This document shows positions 4,129 through 58,509 of a DNA stretch of 60,115 nucleotides, piece by piece (within the stretch, counting starts at the first letter, position 1; each line of letters opens with the position of its first letter). Both the position numbers and the translations under genes were made by a program. The notes under the pieces were generated by a model that made no database searches, was not told the DNA's origin, and saw only the letters and a program-made list of their open reading frames with translations. The stretch comes from a virus (taxonomy: Duplodnaviria; Caudoviricetes), in the IMG/VR virus record IMGVR_UViG_3300048592_000600, positions 1 through 60,115 of that record; one strand, given 5' to 3'.

Positions 4129-4626
4129 ATGAAAAACATTTCCTACAACACAATCGACAAGTCCTCGTGGCCCCGTGGCGAATGGGACAACGAACCGGAC
4201 AAGGCGCAATTCATCGACGAAGCAACGGGCTACCCATGCTTGATTGTTCGCGTCGAATGGTCTGGTCATCTTTGCGGCTATGTCGGCGTGAGCGATGGCC
4301 ACCCGACGTTTGCTCGCGACCTTAGCCGTTATGAAGAAGATCAACCAGACATTGAAGTGCATGGCGGAATCACGTTTGGCGACTTCTGCCAAGAGACAAA
4401 GAACGAATGCCGTGGCATCTGCCATAAGGTTGAAGAAGGCGAGAACGATCGCGTTTGGTGGCATGGGTTTGACTGCCATCACGCGGGCGATTGGGGGCCC
4501 AAGAGCAAACGGGAATTTGATTACGGCGGCTACAGCAGCTACCGCAATTACGATTACGTCAAGCGTGAATGCCAGCAACTTGCGCAGCAATTAAAGGCAT
4601 TGGAAACAAGTGGGGTGCCAGCATGA
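4129..4626 (+). CDS. Conserved phage hypothetical protein
   Basis: GHLCGYVGV, VHGGITF and WW.GFDC.H motifs. Confidence 0.75.
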   Translation: MKNISYNTIDKSSWPRGEWDNEPDKAQFIDEATGYPCLIVRVEWSGHLCGYVGVSDGHPTFARDLSRYEEDQPDIEVHGGITFGDFCQETKNECRGICHKVEEGENDRVWWHGFDCHHAGDWGPKSKREFDYGGYSSYRNYDYVKRECQQLAQQLKALETSGVPA

Positions 4627-4844
4627 GCCTCGAAGAACTGGACAAGCAAATCCTGGGCATCGAGCGCGAGAAGGAAAAGCTCGCCCAAGATCACCTGTAC
4701 CAGCGGATCGTTCTCTGCTTGGAAAGCATTGTCGATTGGGACAACGAAGTACGCAGCAAGTTTCCAGCGGCGCGAATGATTGATCGTTCGCGCACGATGG
4801 CGATGGAACTTATCAACGAACTTAAAGAGAAGGTGAAGCCATGA
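4623..4844 (+). CDS. Hypothetical protein
   Basis: ATGA-coupled ORF. Confidence 0.6.
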   Translation: MSLEELDKQILGIEREKEKLAQDHLYQRIVLCLESIVDWDNEVRSKFPAARMIDRSRTMAMELINELKEKVKP

Positions 4845-5071
4845 GCTACGACCCAAACGACCCGCCAGAACCTACAGCCTGGGAAGAATCGCTATTCGAG
4901 AAGGACTGCGAAATATCTGCGCTCAAAGAGCAGATCGTCGAGGCACATCGACTGCTAGTGCTATCGATTACCGACGCGACCCTTGATGGCTATCAACAAT
5001 GGCGCAATGATCGCCAAGCATGGGTTGACCAAAACGAGCACATTGTGAAAGAGGCGAACAAATGCCAGTAG
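4841..5071 (+). CDS. Hypothetical protein
   Basis: ATGA-coupled ORF. Confidence 0.6.
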   Translation: MSYDPNDPPEPTAWEESLFEKDCEISALKEQIVEAHRLLVLSITDATLDGYQQWRNDRQAWVDQNEHIVKEANKCQ

Positions 5072-6150
5072 ATAACCGCGACTTCACGCAAGGCCCAGAG
5101 AACGCCGCGTTCGATCCGTCGTATTCCGATGGCGAGCATGACGACCTGCCGTTCATGGACGAAGAACCGGCGATCCTCGACCGCTCCACGCTCGAACTGT
5201 GGGCCGAGTGTCCGTACCGCGCAGCGCACGCCGAACTCGACAAGGCCGATAACCTTGTGCTGGTCGCTGGCCAATTGGCTCACGACGCCATCAGCCACAC
5301 GATTGAGAACTACATCCAGGCTGGCGGCGACATGACGCCGGTGATGATCCGCGAGGACTTGGACCGCAAACTGCAAACGTCACGGCCGGATGTTCAGCCC
5401 GAAGTGCTGACCGCTGCGGGCCGGATGGTGTACTCATTCAGCTACATGCTGGCTGGCATTCATCCCGAGAACATCCTTGGCTTTGACGGCGGCGAGCGTT
5501 ACGGCAAGAGCGGGCAGTTGGCCAAGTTCTACGGCGCTTACAACGCCAAGGCCACGAGCGAACTGGACTTCCTCATGGCCGGCGATTCGCCCGAAGTCAT
5601 CGAGTGCATGGACTACAAGACCGGCTGGAAAACCTACGACTACACGGATGTGGCCAAGGCGTTCCAGTTTCAGATGCACGCGGTCCTGATCTTCGACAAA
5701 TACCCGCTCGTCAACGCCGTGAAGTATCGCGTATGGAACACGCGATCGAACGACCTGACTTATCCGGTGCTGTTCAAACGCCAGCAGTACGACGCCTTTG
5801 AAGGGCGATTGTCGGCGGCTGTGCAGAACTGGCATCGGTTCAAGGACGATCCGCCCGCGTGGCCCATCTATGAGAAGTGTTCATTCTGCCCGCTGGTGCT
5901 TTCGTGCCCCTCGGCGAATCAAGAACTGACCGAGTGCGAGAAAGATCCGCAAGCGTTCTTGAAGAACATGGCTGCGGCGCAGGCTCGGCTTGATCGGATG
6001 GAAGCGTTGGCCAAGACGTTCATCGACAAGACGGGCAAGGACCTGATCGGCGATGGCATTGGCTACGGGCGCTCGGCACCGAAGCAAGAGAAGAAATCAC
6101 CGGCGAAGTTTTACGAAACCAAGAAGTCCGCGGCACCGGCTGCGGAATGA
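5062..6150 (+). CDS. PD-(D/E)XK exonuclease, Cas4/AddB-like, probable Fe-S cluster
   Basis: N-terminal ECP, LDFL...MDYKTG, FQMHA, C-terminal CSFCPLVLSCP. Confidence 0.8.
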   Translation: MPVDNRDFTQGPENAAFDPSYSDGEHDDLPFMDEEPAILDRSTLELWAECPYRAAHAELDKADNLVLVAGQLAHDAISHTIENYIQAGGDMTPVMIREDLDRKLQTSRPDVQPEVLTAAGRMVYSFSYMLAGIHPENILGFDGGERYGKSGQLAKFYGAYNAKATSELDFLMAGDSPEVIECMDYKTGWKTYDYTDVAKAFQFQMHAVLIFDKYPLVNAVKYRVWNTRSNDLTYPVLFKRQQYDAFEGRLSAAVQNWHRFKDDPPAWPIYEKCSFCPLVLSCPSANQELTECEKDPQAFLKNMAAAQARLDRMEALAKTFIDKTGKDLIGDGIGYGRSAPKQEKKSPAKFYETKKSAAPAAE

Positions 6151-22424: not shown

Positions 22425-25400
22425 GCTTTTGGTTGCGCAGCCTTGGCTCTCTTTTTGGCGCGCTCGCTCAGTTCCTTGAGCAACGCCTGAATCTGCATGG
22501 CGCGCTGCTGCTTCTCTGGCGGCAGTTTGGCCAGTTCCTCTTTTGAGATGAATACCTTCTCGTAAGCCTGCCCGCCCGTCTCGCGCAGAAGATCTTGCAA
22601 GTAGCCGCGGGCCATGGCTTCTTGCGTCTTGGCTGGCACGTCCGTGACCTTCACGCCGGTGAGCGTGTTCAATGCTTTGGCTCCAATGCCCTTGCGCGTG
22701 TCGGTCAACTGCTTGATCGTCGTGAGCGGCGTGGGCGCAATGTTCATCGCCAGCGTGTCAAGCCGCTGTGTTTGCCAAGGCTCGCCGCCAAAAATGTTCG
22801 ACTTGATGCGGCCGATCACGGGGTCCATGTCGCGCAGTTCGCGGTCTTGAAACAACGATCGACCGGTGGCTGTCTCGAGCGGAGCCTTGATGAGCGGATT
22901 GAGCATCCCGGTAAACTCCGCGCCTAAGCCCGGCCGGCCAACGAGCGAACCTGCCAGCGAGCCGAGCAGCGTCATGGAATCCTCGGGCATCAGGCCCAAA
23001 CCGGTGATGTACCGCGGGTCGCCTTGATCGTTCGTGCCATACGGAATCGCTGCCGTTTGGGCAATGTGCTCGGGCAGGATTTGACCCTCGCCTTGTAGTT
23101 CGGTGATCGTGCGCAGCGTCTTGCCGAGCGGGCCGCCAGGGTTTTGCGCAAGTTGCTTGACCGTGTAGGGAACCATACCTCTCGAGAAGCTCCAAAAGGG
23201 CATCGCTCGTCTCATGACAGATCGCTCGAACTGCGAGAGATTCCCGTAGTCAACGTGCATGTCCTTGATCTGCTGGGCCAGCGTTGCCGGGTCGATGCCC
23301 TTCGACAAGCCCTCAATCCACGCCGTCAACCGGTTCATGCCTTCGACGATGTGCGAGGCTTGTTCGTTGGCTTGACTGAGAAAGAACTTGGATTCCTCGC
23401 CGCGCAGGCCACGGCTGTTCAAGGGATTCATCGTCCCGCCCTTGCGGTTCTTCCACGCCTCTTTGCCGCGAGCATACAGCGATTTGATGGCCACCCGCGG
23501 ATCGAACGACGCGTTGGCCGGCACCGAGCCAGGGATTGCTCCGAGCACTTGATTATTCTGCACGCCAATGAGGTCGGCCGCTTGCCCGGCATACCTGGGA
23601 ATGACGTCGTGCTGAAACGCCAGATCAGCAACGAATTTGGTTGCTTCCTCATCGGTCCCCTGAAAACCCATGCGTTTTGCGAGCCCTGCGATGGTGTCGC
23701 CGTTCATCAGTTCGCGCGAGCCCTTGAGGCCGAACACGCTGAACAATCCGTTCTGGGCGTTTTGGATCTGCCCGCCCGCAAGGTTGCGCACATGGAACGC
23801 CGGCCGCATCAGGGCAAACGTCTTGAAGAACGTGGTGGACTTGTCGATCGCGTTCCAGAACGCCGAGATTTCCTGGGGCGTCTTGATCGTCTCGGTCAGC
23901 CGCGCCAGGTTCTCCACAACATCGCGCGGCACCGACCAGTTCTTTGCATCGCCCACGTCGCCCACAAGCTCGCCAATGTTCTTGAGAAACCCTTCGGTTG
24001 GCTTGTTGCCCGTGGCCATGCCCAGGGCCTCGGCTGCGTCAGCCAGCGACATAAGATCGCTGTTGGTCCCGGGCTGGCCTTTGATGAGATGCTGCGGCAG
24101 AGCCTCGATCTTGGCCTTGGCGTTGGCTGCGGACTTGCCCGCGCGAGACAGCCGTTGCCCGAGCATTTCCATCGGGTTGTTGGTGAAGAATCCCAGCGGT
24201 TCGCCCGTCTCTTGAAACCGTTGCAGGTACTTGTCGCCAACATCGGTTTGCAGCCAATCGACCAAGCGACCAGCGTTGGAACGGGCTTGCTCCATCTTGG
24301 CCAGGGAATCTTTCACCGCATCGGCCGTCGCGGGATTCTGGGCCAACTGCACCAGCGCGTCGTATTGCTGCCGATCAAAGCCCTGGTAATCGTAGTTGTC
24401 GAGCAAGAAATCCGCGGCTTGCTGGCGTGCTTGTTTGAGCGCGAATGTCTGGGCTGAGTCGGCGGTGCCTGCCCCCTTGAAGTCTTGCAGGTACTTTTGG
24501 TAGGCCGCGGGATCGGGCGGATAAATCTGCGTCAAGTCTTTGCTGACAAGATTGGGATCGAGCGTCATTCTGCTCAGGTCGGTCGTGAGGGCCCCGCGCA
24601 GAATCTCCTCGCGAGCGTTCTGCGAAGCGTTGCCGCTGCCGATCGCACCGTATCGATTCATGCGGTTGGTGTACTCGTCAGCCGATTCTCCGAGGTTCTG
24701 GGCCTGCCGAGCCATGTAGCCCAGTTCATCGCCCTTGAGCGTGCGCAGGGCCGTGCCAGCGTCCTTCTCGATGAGTTCCGAGTATGGCCCCATGAGGTCG
24801 GCGTAACGCTGGGCGAAGTCCATCGGGATTTCGAGGATGTTGCCACCGGCGCCGGGAGCGATGAGCGGCAACTGCGGGCCAGCGTTTGTGCCCCCCTTCT
24901 CCACGAAGTCCGAGAGCAAGTCTTGCAGCGGGATCGAAGTTTGCACTTCGGTCGGCATCGCTTCCCATTCGCGGATCAAATCGCCCAGCGGGCCGCGCGT
25001 GGCGGCTTGATACTCGAGCTCCTTGGCCGTGGCGTTCTGCGAGGTGATCTGGCCAACTGCATCTCGGAATCCGCGCGAGGACTTTTGGAACGCGGGCGCA
25101 AGGTAGTCGCGCACCGGGTTGACATCCCAGCGCCACGACGTCGGGTTGTAAACGGCATCGGTTGGCGGTGGCGTTACCGTGGCTGGCGGCACGACTGCGG
25201 GGCTGCCGAGTTGGCTGATGTCCGGCGCGCCGTCGAGTTCGGTCTTGAGGATGTTCGCGTTGCCGTAGTCCTGCGGTTTTGTTTGCCCCCAGCTTTCCGG
25301 CACCCAGCCGAGCCAGTTGCCATAACGGAACGTGTCGGCAAAGTTGTCGAGGCTCTTGGCCGCTTCGACGCCGCCTAGGTTAATGCCGCGCTCGCCCCAA

Positions 25401-49357: not shown

Positions 49358-49457
49358 CCGTGTTCGGTCTGGTGTTCCCGGGTTAAGTGGAATTTAGTTT
49401 GTTTTGCGGTCCAAAGTTTTTCCCGTTTTTTCATCCCGTTTTTTGGAGTGCTCCCCT

Positions 49458-49960: not shown

Positions 49961-50761
49961 GTGCGCCGATCTGCCGGCGCTTTGCGGTCCGCGCTGCCGT
50001 GCTCGGTCCGCGCTCTTCTCATTCCGCGCTGCCGATCTGCCGGCGCTGGCAATCCCGAGCACCAGCAAGCGCCGGCGCTGCGTCTCGGTCCGATCTGCTG
50101 CCGATCTGCGCCGGCGCTGCCGTGCTCATTCTGCCCGCGCTGCTGCGTCTCTGCGCGTCTCGGTCCGAGCACCGAGACAACGGCGCCATCGTTCGCGCTG
50201 CGTCTCTGCTGCGTCTCTGCCGTGCTCATGGCCGATCTGCTGCCGTGCTCGGTCTGCTGCTGGCGATCTGCTGCCGTGGCGCTGCCGTGCTCGGACCGAG
50301 CACCAGCAAGTTAAGCGCGGTCTGCCGTTGTTTGCCGTGGCGCTGCGCCATCGGTCGCGCTTATTCGGTCGCGCTGCTGCCGATGTTTTCCCGTGGATTC
50401 TCTGCCGTGCTCGGTCCGTTGTCTCAATTGCCAAACTGTCCAACAAGAAATTTGCTCGGTCCGATCTGCTGCCGTGGCCGATGGCCGGCGCCCCGCGCCC
50501 CGCCGATCTGCCGGGCATAGGTAATAGGTAATAGGCTAGCCGGCTGCCGCCAGCGCCCCATTGCAAGGCCGCGTCTCTTGACGTGCCGCCGATGGGTGCG
50601 TACGCGCTGACACCATGTTCCCGGCGTCGGCAAATTGGCCCTCGCGATGCTCACTTAATCCGCGCTCTGCTGTTCGCGGCTGCCGGGTTAAGCGGAGTTT
50701 TTTGTGATTTGCAAGCCGATTTTTTCGGCGTGGTTTCCCTCTGGTCCCAGGAGTACGGCAC

Positions 50762-52537: not shown

Positions 52538-53542
52538 ATGGGACACGGTTTCACGAGTACCGATAGCGCGGTGTTTGCTGGCCAGCGTGCTTGGCACGGC
52601 CTGGGCAAAGTGGTGGTCGAAGCCCCGACGCCAATGGAAGCCCTCAAGATGGCGGGGCTTGATTGGGAAGTCGAACAGTGGCCGCTTTCGGCCGTCAACG
52701 AAGGCAAGGCCCGTCTGCCAGTGACGAGCCATGTCTGCAATATTCGCAGCGACAACATGACGCAACTGGGCGTGGTCGGCAACGGCTATCGTCCGATCCA
52801 GAACCGGGAACTGGCCGAGTTCGCCGAGGCTCTGGGTAGCGGGGGTGATAACGTGCTGGTCGAATCGGCGGCGTCGATCAACGAAGGCCGGCGTGTGTGG
52901 TTCCTGCTCCGCGGCAATTCGTTCATGGTCAAGGGCTTCGACGATGCGGTTCACCCGTATCTACTCCTGGCCAACGGGCACGACGGCGGGCTGGCGTTCC
53001 ACGTTCGACCAACGTCGATTCGGGTTGTCTGCAAGAACACGCTCTCGATGAGCATGGGCGAGAAGTTGGAAATGGCCGTGCGGTTCCGTCACGAAGGCGA
53101 TATGAAAGCCAAGCTCGACGAAGCCAAACGGGTGCTGGGCATGTTCGATCGCACGACCGAAGTGTTCCGCGAAAAGGTTCAATACCTGAGCGACAAGGAC
53201 GTGAGCCGCGAAACGCTGAATGAGTTCTTCATGCAAGCGTACTCCGAGGCTTACGAGCAGATCCCGGTCAATCCGACTACCGCCAAACAGCGGGAAGCCC
53301 GCGAGCAAGCGTTCTATACGATGTATCAGTGGAATCGCAAGTTCCAGATCGACAGCGAGAAGTTTGGCTCGTCGATGTGGACCGCACTCAATGCCGCGAC
53401 GGATTGGATGCAGCATGATGACAAGGTGCGCGGCAAAGACGCGGCGACCCGCGAGCAGAACCGTTTGAAGTCGCAAATCTTTGGCGCGATCGAAGAACGG
53501 ACCAACGCTGCGGCACGGGTGGCGATGGCCTTGGCTGGCTAG
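52538..53542 (+). CDS. DUF932/DUF945 family phage/plasmid protein
   Basis: WHGLG, AGLDWEV, LGVVG..YRPIQN, YLLLANGHDG, IRVVCKNTL, WTALNAATDW. Confidence 0.9.
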   Translation: MGHGFTSTDSAVFAGQRAWHGLGKVVVEAPTPMEALKMAGLDWEVEQWPLSAVNEGKARLPVTSHVCNIRSDNMTQLGVVGNGYRPIQNRELAEFAEALGSGGDNVLVESAASINEGRRVWFLLRGNSFMVKGFDDAVHPYLLLANGHDGGLAFHVRPTSIRVVCKNTLSMSMGEKLEMAVRFRHEGDMKAKLDEAKRVLGMFDRTTEVFREKVQYLSDKDVSRETLNEFFMQAYSEAYEQIPVNPTTAKQREAREQAFYTMYQWNRKFQIDSEKFGSSMWTALNAATDWMQHDDKVRGKDAATREQNRLKSQIFGAIEERTNAAARVAMALAG

Positions 53543-53609
53543 TGGCTCCATACAACCTGCCGTCAGTGTGAGACGGCAGGCTTATGGATTCTCTACCAAG
53601 GAGGTTTTG

Positions 53610-54098
53610 ATGGCTAAGACGCATCGGCGTGTGTGCGCTAAATGCTTGAAAAGAAAGTCGCTCGACGAGTTCAAGCCGCGGCCCAATGGGACCGTGAGCT
53701 ACTGCTACAAGTGCGAGATTGGTTACTACCGCGAATACAACGCCAAGCGTTACGCCTCGCCCGAGGCTCGTGCGGCAGAGTTGAAGCGGACGAAGGAACG
53801 CTACCATGCGGTCAGGAAACCATTACGCCACATGCGGAAATTGGAGCTTATCGCCTTGATGGGCGGCAAGTGCCAGCGATGCGGATATGCGAAGTCAGTG
53901 GCCGCGCTCGACTTCCATCACCGCAAGCCCGTGGACAAAAAAAGAACAATCAGCCACCTACTCCCCATAAACCAACCGTGGGCGTGGGAGGCATTGCTGA
54001 AAGAAGTCAAGAAGTGCGATTTGATTTGCTCGAACTGTCATCGTGAACTGACCTACCCAGGTTGGGAGATATTTCACCTGCCGAAGATCGACTTTTGA
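53610..54098 (+). CDS. HNH endonuclease with N-terminal Zn finger
   Basis: GGKCQRCGY..SVAALDFHH...EVKKCDLICSNCHR. Confidence 0.88.
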   Translation: MAKTHRRVCAKCLKRKSLDEFKPRPNGTVSYCYKCEIGYYREYNAKRYASPEARAAELKRTKERYHAVRKPLRHMRKLELIALMGGKCQRCGYAKSVAALDFHHRKPVDKKRTISHLLPINQPWAWEALLKEVKKCDLICSNCHRELTYPGWEIFHLPKIDF

Positions 54099-54186
54099 TC
54101 CTGTGAGAGGGTCCGCCCGAATAGCGCTATCGTGCTTCGCAACACGACGGGCGGAATTTTGTTGCCACTTTTACCCAGGAGCCATC

Positions 54187-54546
54187 ATGCCAAAGTACGA
54201 AGTCAGAGCGATTGAATCGCGGGAGTACATCGTCACATACCATGTCGAAGCGATCGACGAAGCCGAGGCCCGCTGCATGATCGAGGAAGGGACTGGGCAC
54301 GGCGTGCAAGTCGATTGGAAGCCGCTCGACGACAGCGAGCAGATCGAGTTCATCGACAGTTGCGAGCAAATCGACAGCACCGAGAACGGCGAGCCATGCG
54401 GCGTCATCAATCACTACCGCTGCCCCGAGTGCCAAACTGAGTGGACCGACGAATGGGACTGCGCTTGCGATGACAAGTGCCCTGAGTGCGGCTGCCGGAA
54501 CATCAGCCCCTACGACAGCGTGAACAGTGTGGAGTCCACAGGTTAA
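54187..54546 (+). CDS. Acidic Zn-ribbon hypothetical protein
   Basis: NHYRCPECQTEWTDEWDCACDDKCPECG. Confidence 0.7.
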   Translation: MPKYEVRAIESREYIVTYHVEAIDEAEARCMIEEGTGHGVQVDWKPLDDSEQIEFIDSCEQIDSTENGEPCGVINHYRCPECQTEWTDEWDCACDDKCPECGCRNISPYDSVNSVESTG

Positions 54547-54597
54547 GCGAGAAACAGTTTCTTTTTCAAATCCCAATTCTCATTCACGGAGTTATTC

Positions 54598-54981
54598 ATG
54601 TTTGCCAAGCAAGAGACGTTCGACAGGGTGGTATCGCACTTGCGACAGCAAGGCGAGCCAGCATTCACCGTTAAAGCCTCGGGCGTGAGCTGCCGCTACC
54701 GCTTGCCCCGCGGCGATAAGGTTTTGGCCTGCGCCGTTGGCTGCCTGATCCCCGATGACCAATACCTAGAGGACATCGAAGGTGCTGGCGTCAAATACGT
54801 TATGGCCAACTTTAGCTTGTCCTTGCCTGCGATCTATGAGCACGACATGAATCTGCTCGAAGATTTGCAGTCAGCGCATGACTGGTGGGCAGGCAGTGCC
54901 GTCCTGCGGAATGTTGAAGAACAACTCGAAAGCGTGGCTAGGAAGCACGGCCTGACCTACACGCCGCCAACCCCAAGTTAA
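54598..54981 (+). CDS. Conserved phage hypothetical protein
   Basis: QETFD.V..HL..QG, CRYR, CAVGCLIPD, LQSAHD. Confidence 0.72.
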   Translation: MFAKQETFDRVVSHLRQQGEPAFTVKASGVSCRYRLPRGDKVLACAVGCLIPDDQYLEDIEGAGVKYVMANFSLSLPAIYEHDMNLLEDLQSAHDWWAGSAVLRNVEEQLESVARKHGLTYTPPTPS

Positions 54982-55041
54982 GCGAGAAATCCCCTGATAT
55001 GAAACGCAAGATTTTTGTTTTCTCTCACATGGAGTTGTTTG

Positions 55042-55380
55042 ATGAACAAGCGCAAATGGTCCATGTCGGCTCGGCTGCCGACAGTAGATGACATTGAAAT
55101 CTACGATGACAACAGCGACAACCGCGACGTGATTGCATCGGTCCATAAGACCGGCGATGAGTCGTATGACCTTGAAGTTGTCTATCCCGTTGCGAAGTTG
55201 ATGGCATCGGCTCCCGAACTGCTCAAAGCCTGCAAATCGCTGGCCCATGTGCTCCGCTGGCATTTCTTGCCAATGGTCGAGAGCATGATCGGCAAGCCAG
55301 CAGCGCATGCCAAAGATGCCGAGATTGAGCAAGCCCTGGTGTTGCTGGAAACGCTGGGCGTGAGTCGTGAATCTGTTTAG
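55042..55380 (+). CDS. Hypothetical protein
   Basis: AKLMASAPELLKAC phage motif. Confidence 0.65.
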   Translation: MNKRKWSMSARLPTVDDIEIYDDNSDNRDVIASVHKTGDESYDLEVVYPVAKLMASAPELLKACKSLAHVLRWHFLPMVESMIGKPAAHAKDAEIEQALVLLETLGVSRESV

Positions 55381-55443
55381 CAGAGGGGCCGAGCGAAAGC
55401 TCGGTTAATGCGCTGCCCACTTCGGGCAACGGTCCCAAGCCCG
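55380..55443 (+). ncRNA. Twister self-cleaving ribozyme, circularly permuted (type-P5-like)
   Basis: GCA-GAGGG-[GCCGAGC GAAA GCUCGGU]-UAA-UGC-GCU-[GCCC ACUUC GGGC]-AA-CGGUCCCAAGCCCG. Confidence 0.8.
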
Positions 55444-55454
55444 TGAGGAGAACC

Positions 55455-55835
55455 ATGAAACTGACATCCCGAGAATTGGCAACGGTCCTGGCTGCGCTGC
55501 GTTACTGGCAAAACGATCTTGATGATGACCCGGAAATGTTTGAGAACCTTCCCGGCTCTGGGCACTTCGAGCAAGAAACGCCACTTAACGGAGATGAGAT
55601 TGACCGCTTGTGCGAGGAGTTGAACTGCTGCCCTTGTGCAAACACTCTGTTGAGCGACCGCACAGCAAAGGACCGCGAGTTGATCGAAGCCGCCGAGGAC
55701 ATGCTGACCGATCACTTCAACTACAACGACGTGACGGTGCATGAGGATGCAGAAATCACCTACACCGATGGCGGCGCATGGGTCGATTGTCAAATCTGGG
55801 TTGCCGATGACGACATCACCGAGGAGGACGACTAA
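55455..55835 (+). CDS. Acidic hypothetical protein
   Basis: GAGGAG RBS; RELATVLAALRYWQ. Confidence 0.7.
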   Translation: MKLTSRELATVLAALRYWQNDLDDDPEMFENLPGSGHFEQETPLNGDEIDRLCEELNCCPCANTLLSDRTAKDRELIEAAEDMLTDHFNYNDVTVHEDAEITYTDGGAWVDCQIWVADDDITEEDD

Positions 55836-56071
55836 TGCAACGACGCCTATTCACCGGCATGGACTGCCTGCCGGGCCAGCAAGACCTGTTCGACACCGAT
55901 GGCTTCGATCCGCAAGTTAAGCGGGCCGCGCCGTTGTTTGAAGTTCCCAATTTTTCCTCTCACGAAAGCGAATCATGCAACCACAATCACTCCGCGACAT
56001 CATCGGTCAACCCATCGTCGAGCACTTGCAACGCTATGCCGCCAACCCCCACCCAAACTGCTTTCTTCTAA
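55835..56071 (+). CDS. Small hypothetical protein (C-terminal half doubtful)
   Basis: TAATG coupling; LFTGMDCLPGQQDLF; reads through a boundary element. Confidence 0.4.
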   Translation: MQRRLFTGMDCLPGQQDLFDTDGFDPQVKRAAPLFEVPNFSSHESESCNHNHSATSSVNPSSSTCNAMPPTPTQTAFF

Positions 56072-56622
56072 GCGGGCCACCGGGCACGGGCAAGTCGGCC
56101 ACGGCTCGGGCGCTCGCTGCGGATCTTGGCTGCCCCGATGAGTTCTCGGGCTTCCTGACAATTTCTTCGGCAGACCTGACCGCCGACAATATCCGCGAAT
56201 ACTTTGGTCACAAGTTGCGGCTTCGCCCGCTGACCGGCTCGGGTTGGAAGTGCCTTTTGATTGAAGAACTCGATGGTGTTACGAGCAGTCAAGCAGAACG
56301 GCTCTTGAAAATTGCCTTGGACAAAAACAACTTGCCGGCCAAGACAACAATCATCGCCACAAGCAATAACGTGCTTGGCATTCCCCTGGCGCTCCGCAAT
56401 CGGTTCCGTCATGCCGAATTCAGCAATGGCCCCGAGTTTCGCAAGGCTTGCCTGGAACACTTGGCCCAACGCTGGCAGAAAGACGCGCCGGGCGAGCCAT
56501 TGCCGCGCACGTTCTGGCATTTCGGGCAATGCGGTGACGGCTTCTCGATGCGCTCGGCGTGCGATGAATACGCCCAGTGCCTTGAAATGCTGCAATCCTC
56601 TTTTACGCGAGGGCAGCAATGA
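55975..56622 (+). CDS. AAA+ ATPase, clamp-loader clade (RFC/DnaX/RarA-like)
   Basis: PQSLRDIIGQ, LLSGPPGTGKS, LIEELD, ALRNR. Confidence 0.85.
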   Translation: MQPQSLRDIIGQPIVEHLQRYAANPHPNCFLLSGPPGTGKSATARALAADLGCPDEFSGFLTISSADLTADNIREYFGHKLRLRPLTGSGWKCLLIEELDGVTSSQAERLLKIALDKNNLPAKTTIIATSNNVLGIPLALRNRFRHAEFSNGPEFRKACLEHLAQRWQKDAPGEPLPRTFWHFGQCGDGFSMRSACDEYAQCLEMLQSSFTRGQQ

Positions 56623-57140
56623 AATACAAGCGACACGGAGAAAGCCGGACTAAGCTGCATCGCGTTTGGGTCCACATGAAATGGCGATGCGCAAACCCAA
56701 ATTGCCCCGGTTACATCAATTATGGTGGGCGTGGAATTGTGGTCTGCAAAGAGTGGGAGGACGACTATTCGGCGTTTAGGGATTGGGCTATCGCGAATGG
56801 CTACTCCGAGGGACTGCAAATCGACCGCAAGAACAACAACAAGGGCTACTCGCCAGAGAATTGCCGTTTTGTAACCCGCTCACAAAACAACAAGAACCGG
56901 CGCGCTAGAAAAAATGGATCGTCACGATTCAAGGGTGTAAGTTACATGCGAACCCGCAAAAAGTGGCTGGCCTGCATTCGTCATGACGGAAGAACAAAGA
57001 ACCTTGGCCATTACGCAACAGCCCTTGCAGCGGCGTTAGCCTACGATGATTTCGCTTACGATCATTACACTGAATACGCCGGTTTGAATTTCCCTGAGCG
57101 CAAGAAGAAGAATTCCATGCACACCCAAGAAAGGAAATAG
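56619..57140 (+). CDS. HNH-AP2 homing endonuclease
   Basis: YGGRGIVVCKEW, IDRKNNNKGYSPENCRF; AP2 segment SRFKGV...KWLACI...LG.Y...AALAYD. Confidence 0.9.
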   Translation: MKYKRHGESRTKLHRVWVHMKWRCANPNCPGYINYGGRGIVVCKEWEDDYSAFRDWAIANGYSEGLQIDRKNNNKGYSPENCRFVTRSQNNKNRRARKNGSSRFKGVSYMRTRKKWLACIRHDGRTKNLGHYATALAAALAYDDFAYDHYTEYAGLNFPERKKKNSMHTQERK

Positions 57141-57142
57141 TC

Positions 57143-57481
57143 ATGGCTGGGCCTGCTGATGGCAAATACTACATACTCGATGGCCTAAAGCCCGTTGAGT
57201 GTGAGTTTGTAACTTGGATGGAGTGGTCCAACGAAACGGGCGGCTCTGGCTTCGAGGTTGCCAGCACGCGCGTTCGTGATCCCAATGGCAAAGAGTACGG
57301 CATCATCACGGCGTTCCGCGGCATCGGCAATTCGCTGTATGCCACCGTGATCTTTCCCAATCATGAGTGCGCCAAAGACATGGGCACTTACAACACGCTG
57401 ATCGATGCCAAGCACGGGCATCAAGAGCATGTCATTCGTCTTGTGCGCTCCGGTGTTTTTCAACTCGTCGATCAGGAATAG
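57143..57481 (+). CDS. Hypothetical protein
   Basis: YYILDG.KPV.C...W, AK.GH motif. Confidence 0.65.
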   Translation: MAGPADGKYYILDGLKPVECEFVTWMEWSNETGGSGFEVASTRVRDPNGKEYGIITAFRGIGNSLYATVIFPNHECAKDMGTYNTLIDAKHGHQEHVIRLVRSGVFQLVDQE

Positions 57482-57483
57482 TC

Positions 57484-58509
57484 ATGGCTAAGAAGAAGCT
57501 CCCAAAGCCAACAACCCTCGCACTTCCCAGCGGTCCCGTCTGCCATCTCTACGGCCGCGTTTCCGCCGAAGATCAATTGCTGGGCATGTCGCTCGAAAAG
57601 CAAGTGTACGAAGGCTGGCGGTTCTACGATTACAAACTCGAGCCGGAAGGCATCGCGCGCGGCGAAGCGTTCCAAGAGCGTGCCGTCAGCGCGTACCGGG
57701 TGGACTTTCTCAAGCGGCCCGAGGGCTCACGCATCAACTTGGCTCTGCGCCCCGGCGATCACGTTGTCATCCTGCGCTTCGACCGTGCGTTCCGTAACGT
57801 GCTCGACTTCCTCAATGTGTGGAAAGCCTGGGAGATACGCGACATCGTTCTGCATGTGCTCGATCAGCCGATGTTTGACATGAGCACGGCGCAGGGGGTG
57901 GCCAACGCGCAGATGATGGCCGTGTTCGCCGAGCACGAGTCTCGCATGAAGTCGCAACGGCTGCGCGAGATGGCGCATTTCAATCGGATGCAAGGGTTCC
58001 CGGCGATCAAGACCCGCCGCGGCCGCGCTTGGGATTTCCCGGGCATTAAAATGCGTTACACCGCCAAGGGCAAATCGTATCCCGAGTTCGAGCCAAAGTC
58101 GTTTGCCACCTATCGCTACATGCTGCAGATCATGGCCACTGGCAAGTACTCCTGGGATGAAGTTCGCGAGAAGTGCGAGAAGTACATGTGTGATCTGCTC
58201 GGCGTGACCTACATGCAATCGGCGTTTCACGTTCGCCGCTGGATCACGGAGTCCTCGATGCACCACTACTACATGCGCCGCAAAGAGCTCATCCCCATGT
58301 ACGAGCGGATGGGCCTGGACTTTCCCGAGGGGCTGCTCGAAATGCCCGAGCGGTACAACTACTTTGACCGCAAGCGAGCCAAGTGCCTGCATGACATGGA
58401 GCGCAAGCTGCCGAGTTATCTGCGCAAGGGAAAGCCGCTCACGCTGCCGGGCCATTATGCTGCTCAAGGCGAAACAGAACCTCGCAGGCCGGCTTCTGAG
58501 AGCCAGTGA
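57484..58509 (+). CDS. Serine recombinase (resolvase/invertase catalytic domain plus extended C-terminus)
   Basis: YGRVSAEDQ (catalytic S), ERAVSA, RPE, GD.VV..RFDRAFRN, AVFAEHES...QR. Confidence 0.9.
   Translation: MAKKKLPKPTTLALPSGPVCHLYGRVSAEDQLLGMSLEKQVYEGWRFYDYKLEPEGIARGEAFQERAVSAYRVDFLKRPEGSRINLALRPGDHVVILRFDRAFRNVLDFLNVWKAWEIRDIVLHVLDQPMFDMSTAQGVANAQMMAVFAEHESRMKSQRLREMAHFNRMQGFPAIKTRRGRAWDFPGIKMRYTAKGKSYPEFEPKSFATYRYMLQIMATGKYSWDEVREKCEKYMCDLLGVTYMQSAFHVRRWITESSMHHYYMRRKELIPMYERMGLDFPEGLLEMPERYNYFDRKRAKCLHDMERKLPSYLRKGKPLTLPGHYAAQGETEPRRPASESQ

Follow-up and report, generated by a model that had tools for sequence, protein, structure and literature searches.

A type-P5 twister family member in the spacer between two small genes of a tailed phage

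The small-gene cluster and its junctions

The stretch of DNA analysed here, referred to throughout as the window, is a single IMG/VR tailed-phage record (IMGVR_UViG_3300048592_000600) of 60,115 bases with an estimated completeness of 97%. Structural genes, encoding the terminase large subunit, a portal protein (a weak match), the major head protein and a tail-fibre-like protein, occupy the minus strand at approximately 22-45 kb, and replication-type genes for a DnaB-like helicase, an exonuclease and two DNA methyltransferases are found on the plus strand at 1-18 kb. The junction that contains the twister lies within a plus-strand cluster of small ORFs at approximately 49-58 kb, on the strand opposite to the structural module. 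This cluster also encodes a DUF932 protein (52538-53542), a clamp-loader-like AAA ATPase, an HNH/AP2 endonuclease and a serine recombinase or integrase-like protein (57367-58509; Resolvase domain, phrog_95), and the co-occurrence of the recombinase and the DUF932 gene suggests a temperate or mobile-element-like accessory region. The sequence-only reading had called the two genes at the junction 'early', a plausible label and, for such a cluster, a reasonable guess and no more. No tRNA genes were found in the 60-kb window, and a consensus scan of the plus strand returned no terminator-like site between 51058 and 56146 and no promoter-like site between 48304 and 59067. Hints to the host point weakly to the Planctomycetota: the capsid gene has a relative at 28% identity in a contig of a Pirellulaceae MAG, itself a weak hint, and the Atlas look-alikes were mostly annotated as Planctomycetota, at scores that shuffled proteins reach too.

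The upstream ORF of the junction (55042-55380, plus strand) encodes 112 aa from an ATG at 55042, and its stop codon, TAG at 55378-55380, runs into the 5' end of the ribozyme. It displayed a weak match to phrog_1273, a PHROGs family of unknown function (E 2.4e-4), and one viral relative with 45% identity over residues 15-65. The downstream ORF (55455-55835, plus strand; 126 aa, ATG at 55455) has two viral relatives with 34% identity over residues 53-114, and is preceded by a Shine-Dalgarno-like GAGGAG at 55445-55450, which begins 1 nt past the last helix of the ribozyme, P4. Neither protein was assigned to a Pfam family, PHROGs returned nothing for the downstream one, and the Atlas scores of both were at most 0.81, within the range reached by shuffled proteins. 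With distant protein relatives in other viral contigs, however, both ORFs look like real genes. The 74-nt gap between them (55381-55454) had been described as almost filled by the parts of a twister, and the sequence agrees with this description letter for letter.

Neighbouring junctions in the cluster carry a different element. A repeat of approximately 50 nt, with the consensus RG-TTAAGCG-GAAnTCnCnTTGnTTTGnAAnnCnAAnTTTTTC, is found on the plus strand between 49373 and 55964 in nine copies (starting at 49375, 50682, 51034, 51412, 51801, 52425, 54534, 54971 and 55908) and in a weak copy at 50304. It is confined to the small-gene cluster, and the TAA within TTAAGCG is the stop codon of the upstream gene. 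The repeat is absent from the twister junction and from the tight junctions near 53542 and 54098, in keeping with the earlier remark that the TTAAGYG motif of neighbouring junctions is missing at the twister. We asked whether the repeat might fold as an RNA or serve as another site of processing, but RNAalifold found no consensus pair in the nine copies; the repeat can thus be viewed as a sequence signal, possibly a promoter or a protein-binding site. The gene model just downstream of the junction is uncertain between 55741 and 55975, where an ORF at 55741-55920, closed by the repeat copy at 55908, overlaps the 3' end of ORF 55455-55835 in another frame, and where an ORF at 55835-56071 would cross the repeat and enter the ATPase gene, whose start is at 55975. 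Rearrangement, frameshifting or an error of sequencing may lie behind this frame conflict.

Identity and anatomy of the ribozyme

The twister class of self-cleaving RNAs was reportedly described by Roth et al. in 2014. The whole 60-kb window was compared with all 4227 Rfam families by cmscan at gathering thresholds, and a single match was returned, to Twister-P5 (RF02684, clan CL00120) at 55379-55444 on the plus strand, with a score of 53.9 bits against a gathering threshold of 37.6 and an E-value of 1.9e-8. The alignment spans positions 1-58 of the 58-position model and is not truncated, a repeat genome search returned the same place and score, and Twister-P5 was the match retained among the overlapping models of the clan. 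At E<=1, the only other RNA family in the 60-kb window was NsiR1 (E 0.27), which was taken as noise. All upper-case positions of the Rfam consensus are identical in the alignment of 55379-55444, and the core letters GAGGG, UAA, UGC..GC and GGUCCCAAGCCC are all present. The type-P5 identification made by the sequence-only reading, for which it had proposed a search with the Rfam covariance models, was thus borne out, and at the level of sequence 55379-55444 was confirmed as a member of the type-P5 twister family. The parts occur in the order GCA-GAGGG-P1 hairpin-UAA-UGC-GC-P3-P4, with the chain open between P4 and P2, and it is the closure of P1 by a loop that makes this the type-P5 permutation.

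The conserved parts could be followed along the RNA without interruption. The 5' strand of P2 is GCA at 55380-55382, which pairs with UGC at 55409-55411 both in the alignment and in the minimum free energy (MFE) fold. As GCA runs from 55380 and TAG occupies 55378-55380, the ribozyme starts inside the upstream stop codon, just as had been noticed from the letters. There follow the conserved GAGGG (55383-55387), a match to the consensus, and the P1 hairpin GCCGAGC-GAAA-GCUCGGU (55388-55405), with 7 bp, or 8 bp if G55387-U55406 is counted. The UAA at 55406-55408, again matching the consensus, contains the bond predicted to be cut, U55406/A55407; the earlier placement of cleavage at this step, with A55407 lying 48 nt before the ATG, agrees with the consensus UAA. 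Immediately 3' of P2 is GCU (55412-55414), of which GC matches the consensus, and then an optional P3 hairpin, UGCCC-ACUUC-GGGCA, at 55414-55428, with 5 bp and representing an insertion of approximately 15-16 nt relative to the Rfam model. The final helix is the P4 hairpin A-CGGUCCCAAGCCCG-U at 55429-55444, with 4 bp (ACGG/CCGU) and the conserved loop UCCCAAGC, which holds the partners for two pseudoknots, T1 and T2. Its outer pair is A-U where the consensus has c-g. For T1, GG within 55385-55387 is complementary to CC within 55434-55436, and for T2, GCU at 55412-55414 is complementary to AGC at 55438-55440. These GG/CC and GCU/AGC complements, along with the GCA/UGC of P2, had been pointed out beforehand and are present in the letters; T1 and T2 are predicted from this complementarity, and their positions are invariant in the family and so show no covariation.

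The MFE fold of the element alone consisted of exactly P2, P1, P3 and P4, at -29 kcal/mol (z -2.25, with 6 of 200 shuffles as stable), and the same four helices were recovered in a 181-nt fold that included 60-nt flanks on each side. Compared with the Rfam type-P5 twister, the window element shares the core, the loop-closed P1, P2, P4, both pseudoknot complements and the UAA of the cleavage site. It differs in having a P3 hairpin, which the model lacks, and a P2 of 3 bp in place of the consensus 4 bp, because it lacks one nucleotide that the consensus has between UGC and GC. The absence of this single nucleotide had been flagged as a deviation. The deletion is real in the alignment but not unusual: in a set of 77 unique viral examples, described below, GC directly follows UAAUGC in 33 and an extra G is present in 42, and the 3-bp P2 is a common variant. 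Activity data for type-P5 twisters with a 3-bp P2 were not found in the literature; in the available text of PMC11662667, a large assay deals mainly with type P1.

Twister ribozymes cut at the U-A step of the conserved UAA; the proposed general base is a conserved guanine and the proposed general acid the adenine that follows the cleavage site, with the role of Mg2+ being mainly structural (available text of PMC6154101). In the window, the role of general base would fall to the first G of GAGGG, as mapped from the numbering of O. sativa G45 and env22 G48, and A55407 would correspond to the adenine proposed as general acid.

Viral type-P5 relatives and the arrangement of stop codon, ribozyme and start codon

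A viral-contig collection was scanned for the exact core, defined as three motifs and two gaps, which gave 89 further matches in 74 stretches. After identical copies had been collapsed, 77 unique examples remained, the window included, of which 44 were short (<75 nt) and 33 long. The stems of the short type vary in sequence and yet are kept. P1 occurs as 43 distinct sequences among the 44 short examples, all of which fold to 5-12 bp, and the two closing pairs of P4 are paired in 42/44 and 43/44 of them, in CG, AU, UA, GC and UG types. Compensatory change thus appears to maintain the stems, a statement that holds for the family and not for the window copy alone. A P3 of at least 3 bp was found in 7/44 short examples, including the window.

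The position of the short ribozymes relative to the surrounding ORFs was markedly uniform. The upstream side was analysed in those 43 short examples whose upstream flank measured 200 nt or more, using ORFs of at least 50 aa and random positions from the same loci for comparison. An upstream stop codon was found at -1 to +5 nt in 29/43 short examples against 107/4440 random positions (approximately 2%), counts that include the window and are to be read with a crude ORF rule, a sample selected by an exact-core pattern and many related, hence not independent, phages in mind. In 14/43 the stop overlaps the first G of the ribozyme (TA-G, as in the window), an arrangement seen at 13/4440 random positions, and in a further 15/43, against 94/4440, the stop lies 0-5 nt before the ribozyme; in the remainder it was 6-30 nt away (2/43), farther (8/43) or absent (4/43). 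In the same vein, TA immediately precedes the ribozyme in 20/44 short examples, against a TA dinucleotide frequency of 4.1%. On the downstream side, a Shine-Dalgarno-like motif with a start codon that opens a frame of 40 codons or more was found inside 60 nt in 36 of the 41 short examples with enough downstream flank. The distance from ribozyme to start codon ranges from 12 to 53 nt in the short examples, and the 12 nt of the window is the shortest.

The window thus resembles the viral Twister-P5 copies found between small genes, in which the ribozyme is on the same strand as the ORFs, abuts or overlaps a stop codon and is followed by a Shine-Dalgarno motif and a start codon at 12-53 nt; the window ribozyme, too, is on the same strand as both flanking ORFs. 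It differs from that set in being a single copy, where some contigs contain arrays, in its shortest start distance and in bearing a P3, as only the 7/44 short examples do. Nine contigs carry 2-6 twister-P5 copies each, and in some viral contigs arrays of 3-6 copies are spaced by single ORFs of approximately 50-120 aa. One such stretch, L066, contains five copies in 1.5 kb (4175-5620); a copy in another stretch (L012, 220-272) belongs to the same contig, and further arrays were seen in L057, L064 and L067. A prior description of the overlap between stop codon and ribozyme was not found in a non-exhaustive literature search, and the supplements of the original papers may cover it. What is added here is small, namely the counted stop-ribozyme-start stereotype and the demonstration that a 3-bp P2 is ordinary, and we make no claim that the overlap is unpublished.

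The long type (33 unique examples, such as L007, L010, L017, L024 and L046) measures 75-89 nt, with an extended P1 and a P3 region of 24-28 nt, and comes from contigs that measure 73-150 kb. In contrast to the short type, 30/32 long examples have no Shine-Dalgarno motif with a start codon inside 60 nt downstream, and the role of the long type may differ from that of the short type. An association of long twisters with tRNA genes was considered and set aside: ARAGORN, run on 18 of the 33 loci, found tRNA genes in nine (three of them also with a tmRNA), but these lay thousands of bases away in the cases compared.

Close relatives of the window itself were then sought. Megablast of 53000-58000 against the phage collection gave no match. 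Protein-guided scans with both flanking ORFs led to three distant loci, where not a single ribozyme family matched at E<=1, and a terminase-guided scan found four loci at 45-46% identity, including a complete 58.7-kb phage. Twister-P5 was present in 0/5 related records, namely the 58.7-kb phage, the three records in which the flanking ORFs have relatives, and the MAG to which the capsid gene had led. The ribozyme is thus sporadic in the lineage of the window, with no orthologous copy found for a lineage-specific comparison of covariation.

Proposed role in the phage message and alternative explanations

We consider it probable, judging from the sequence and its arrangement, that the element is a functional twister that forms the spacer of a two-gene message, cuts itself between U55406 and A55407, and thereby separates the two cistrons and uncouples their stability and translation. 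The twister would be transcribed on the plus strand and make up the entire spacer of a message including ORF 55042-55380 and ORF 55455-55835, and the transcript would fold into P2, P1, P3 and P4 with the two pseudoknots. An internal transesterification between U55406 and A55407 would then release a 5' product that carries the upstream ORF and ends in a 2',3'-cyclic phosphate just past the P1 hairpin, and a 3' product that begins with a 5'-hydroxyl and a 38-nt leader containing P3 and P4, followed by GAGGAG and the ATG. A cut between the cistrons would place the two genes on separate RNAs, so that their stability and translation would no longer be linked, and would do so without any host nuclease. 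Co-transcription, cleavage in vivo and an effect on expression are all inferred here from the sequence, and whether cleavage would stabilise or destabilise the products depends on the nucleases of the host. As no P5 stem is supported, the 'open' end of the ribozyme would be the mRNA itself. A conserved P5 stem formed by the flanks, which would hide the Shine-Dalgarno sequence, was examined as a candidate and discarded, the native flanks being no better than permuted ones in 44 short and 32 long examples.

The biological role of twisters was described as still undetermined in the available text of PMC6765202, which also places twister and hammerhead ribozymes near phage genes and suggests the processing of polycistronic transcripts. 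The window ribozyme belongs to a known class of RNA, of which it is a clean representative, and twisters near phage genes are already in the literature; the layout statistic (29/43 against approximately 2%) gives small but concrete support to the idea of mRNA punctuation and does not amount to a new kind of system.

An active ribozyme could instead lower the expression of the downstream gene, by breaking translational coupling and by exposing a 5'-hydroxyl RNA that a 5'-to-3' nuclease of the host would remove, in analogy with glmS. The predicted cut, 48 nt before the start codon, would indeed leave a 5'-OH on the downstream product, and with the Shine-Dalgarno sequence beginning 1 nt past P4 a compact folded leader could hinder initiation. 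RNase J1 is involved in removing the product of the glmS ribozyme. Destabilisation of the mRNA is stated as proven for glmS in the available text of PMC6765202. The downstream gene of the window, however, has a strong Shine-Dalgarno sequence and an ATG of its own, and the presence of both right after the ribozyme in 36/41 comparable viral examples fits independent initiation better than silencing. On balance, this outcome appears unlikely.

We also weighed the possibility of an active ribozyme that is carried along as a sporadic, mobile or near-neutral passenger, recombined in with an accessory gene and serving no tuned role. The absence of Twister-P5 from 5/5 related records, and from the loci with relatives of both flanking ORFs, would be expected of such a passenger, as would a junction that lacks the approximately 50-nt element of nine other junctions in the cluster; the copy of this element 73 nt behind the downstream ORF, which closes another frame, may moreover mark a rearrangement. 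Nevertheless, we regard a passenger as quite improbable, for all conserved positions are intact and the fit to the stop codon and the Shine-Dalgarno sequence is exact to the nucleotide. The same tight fit in unrelated contigs argues for selection on the arrangement.

The same layout invites a bolder and equally doubtful generalisation, in which the short type-P5 twister of phages would be a stereotyped punctuation module of stop codon, ribozyme and ribosome-binding site, terminating ribosomes would gate its folding, and cutting would report, or be timed by, translation of the upstream gene. In this phage, the twister would on that view be the one self-cutting junction in a cluster that otherwise uses the unstructured element of approximately 50 nt. 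For the window itself, gating would mean that the 5' half of P1, along with GCA and GAGGG, lies under a ribosome at TAG 55378-55380, that the ribozyme folds only when the upstream gene is not being translated, and that a free Shine-Dalgarno sequence depends on pairing between the flanks. The footprint of a ribosome at this stop codon would, given its general size, span the start of the ribozyme, the stop overlaps the ribozyme in 14/43 comparable examples and lies within 5 nt in 15 more, and the 181-nt fold pairs the 3' end of the upstream ORF (55372-55378) with GAGGAGA (55445-55451) in a duplex of -7.4 kcal/mol. In contrast, across the 44 short examples native flanks paired no better than permuted ones (mean -4.41 versus -4.25 kcal/mol, with 62/200 permutations as good), the tight spacing may be plain genome compaction, and cleavage by twisters is rapid and may precede the arrival of the first ribosome. 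We regard translation-gated cleavage at this junction as very unlikely. In practical terms, this copy is compact and fully canonical, and a stop codon inside the ribozyme and a ribosome-binding site one base after it make this junction a convenient construct for tests of insulation, product stabilisation or translation gating. Finally, an inactive relic or a chance look-alike, to which the P2 one pair below the consensus could be taken to point, is barely credible given a score 16 bits above the curated threshold, an E-value of 1.9e-8, conserved positions that all match and helices P1, P3 and P4 without a broken pair, and from its perfect core in particular a dead relic seems unlikely.

The preferred reading, in which the twister cuts a phage message between two cistrons, has counterparts in other systems. 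In phage T7, the RNase III of the host cuts double-stranded RNA sites between the early genes and yields hairpin-ended products. Both T7 and the present proposal involve intercistronic cutting of a phage message; T7, however, needs a protein enzyme of the host, whereas the window RNA would cut itself to give a 2',3'-cyclic phosphate and a 5'-OH. Small ribozymes in phage spacers have been proposed to yield gene-length mRNAs in the case of hammerheads as well (PMC3088659, available text). There, tandem hammerheads of a prophage cleave transcripts of approximately 2 kb in vitro, with a role in processing proposed in 2011, and in the haloviruses HF1/HF2 a hammerhead lies 13 nt before the start codon of an early gene, with a mapped 5' end at most 3 nt from the cut (PMC3088659). 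The hammerheads are unrelated to the window twister in fold and active site, and their cleavage was shown in vitro or in vivo or is supported by a mapped 5' end (PMC3088659), while that of the window is predicted from its sequence.

A twister-like element was also identified in a cultured phage of the phage collection, Roseburia phage Shimadzu (LR596903.1, approximately 24284-24335; L084, 1483-1534), where a 501-nt search gave a type-P1 match of 56.5 bits against a gathering threshold of 67.2 (E 3.9e-12). It lies after small ORFs, in an unannotated gap between orf30 and an integrase pseudogene. The Shimadzu element and the window ribozyme both place a twister core in a phage intergenic region; the former differs in its P1 permutation, its lack of P3 and a score below the gathering threshold.
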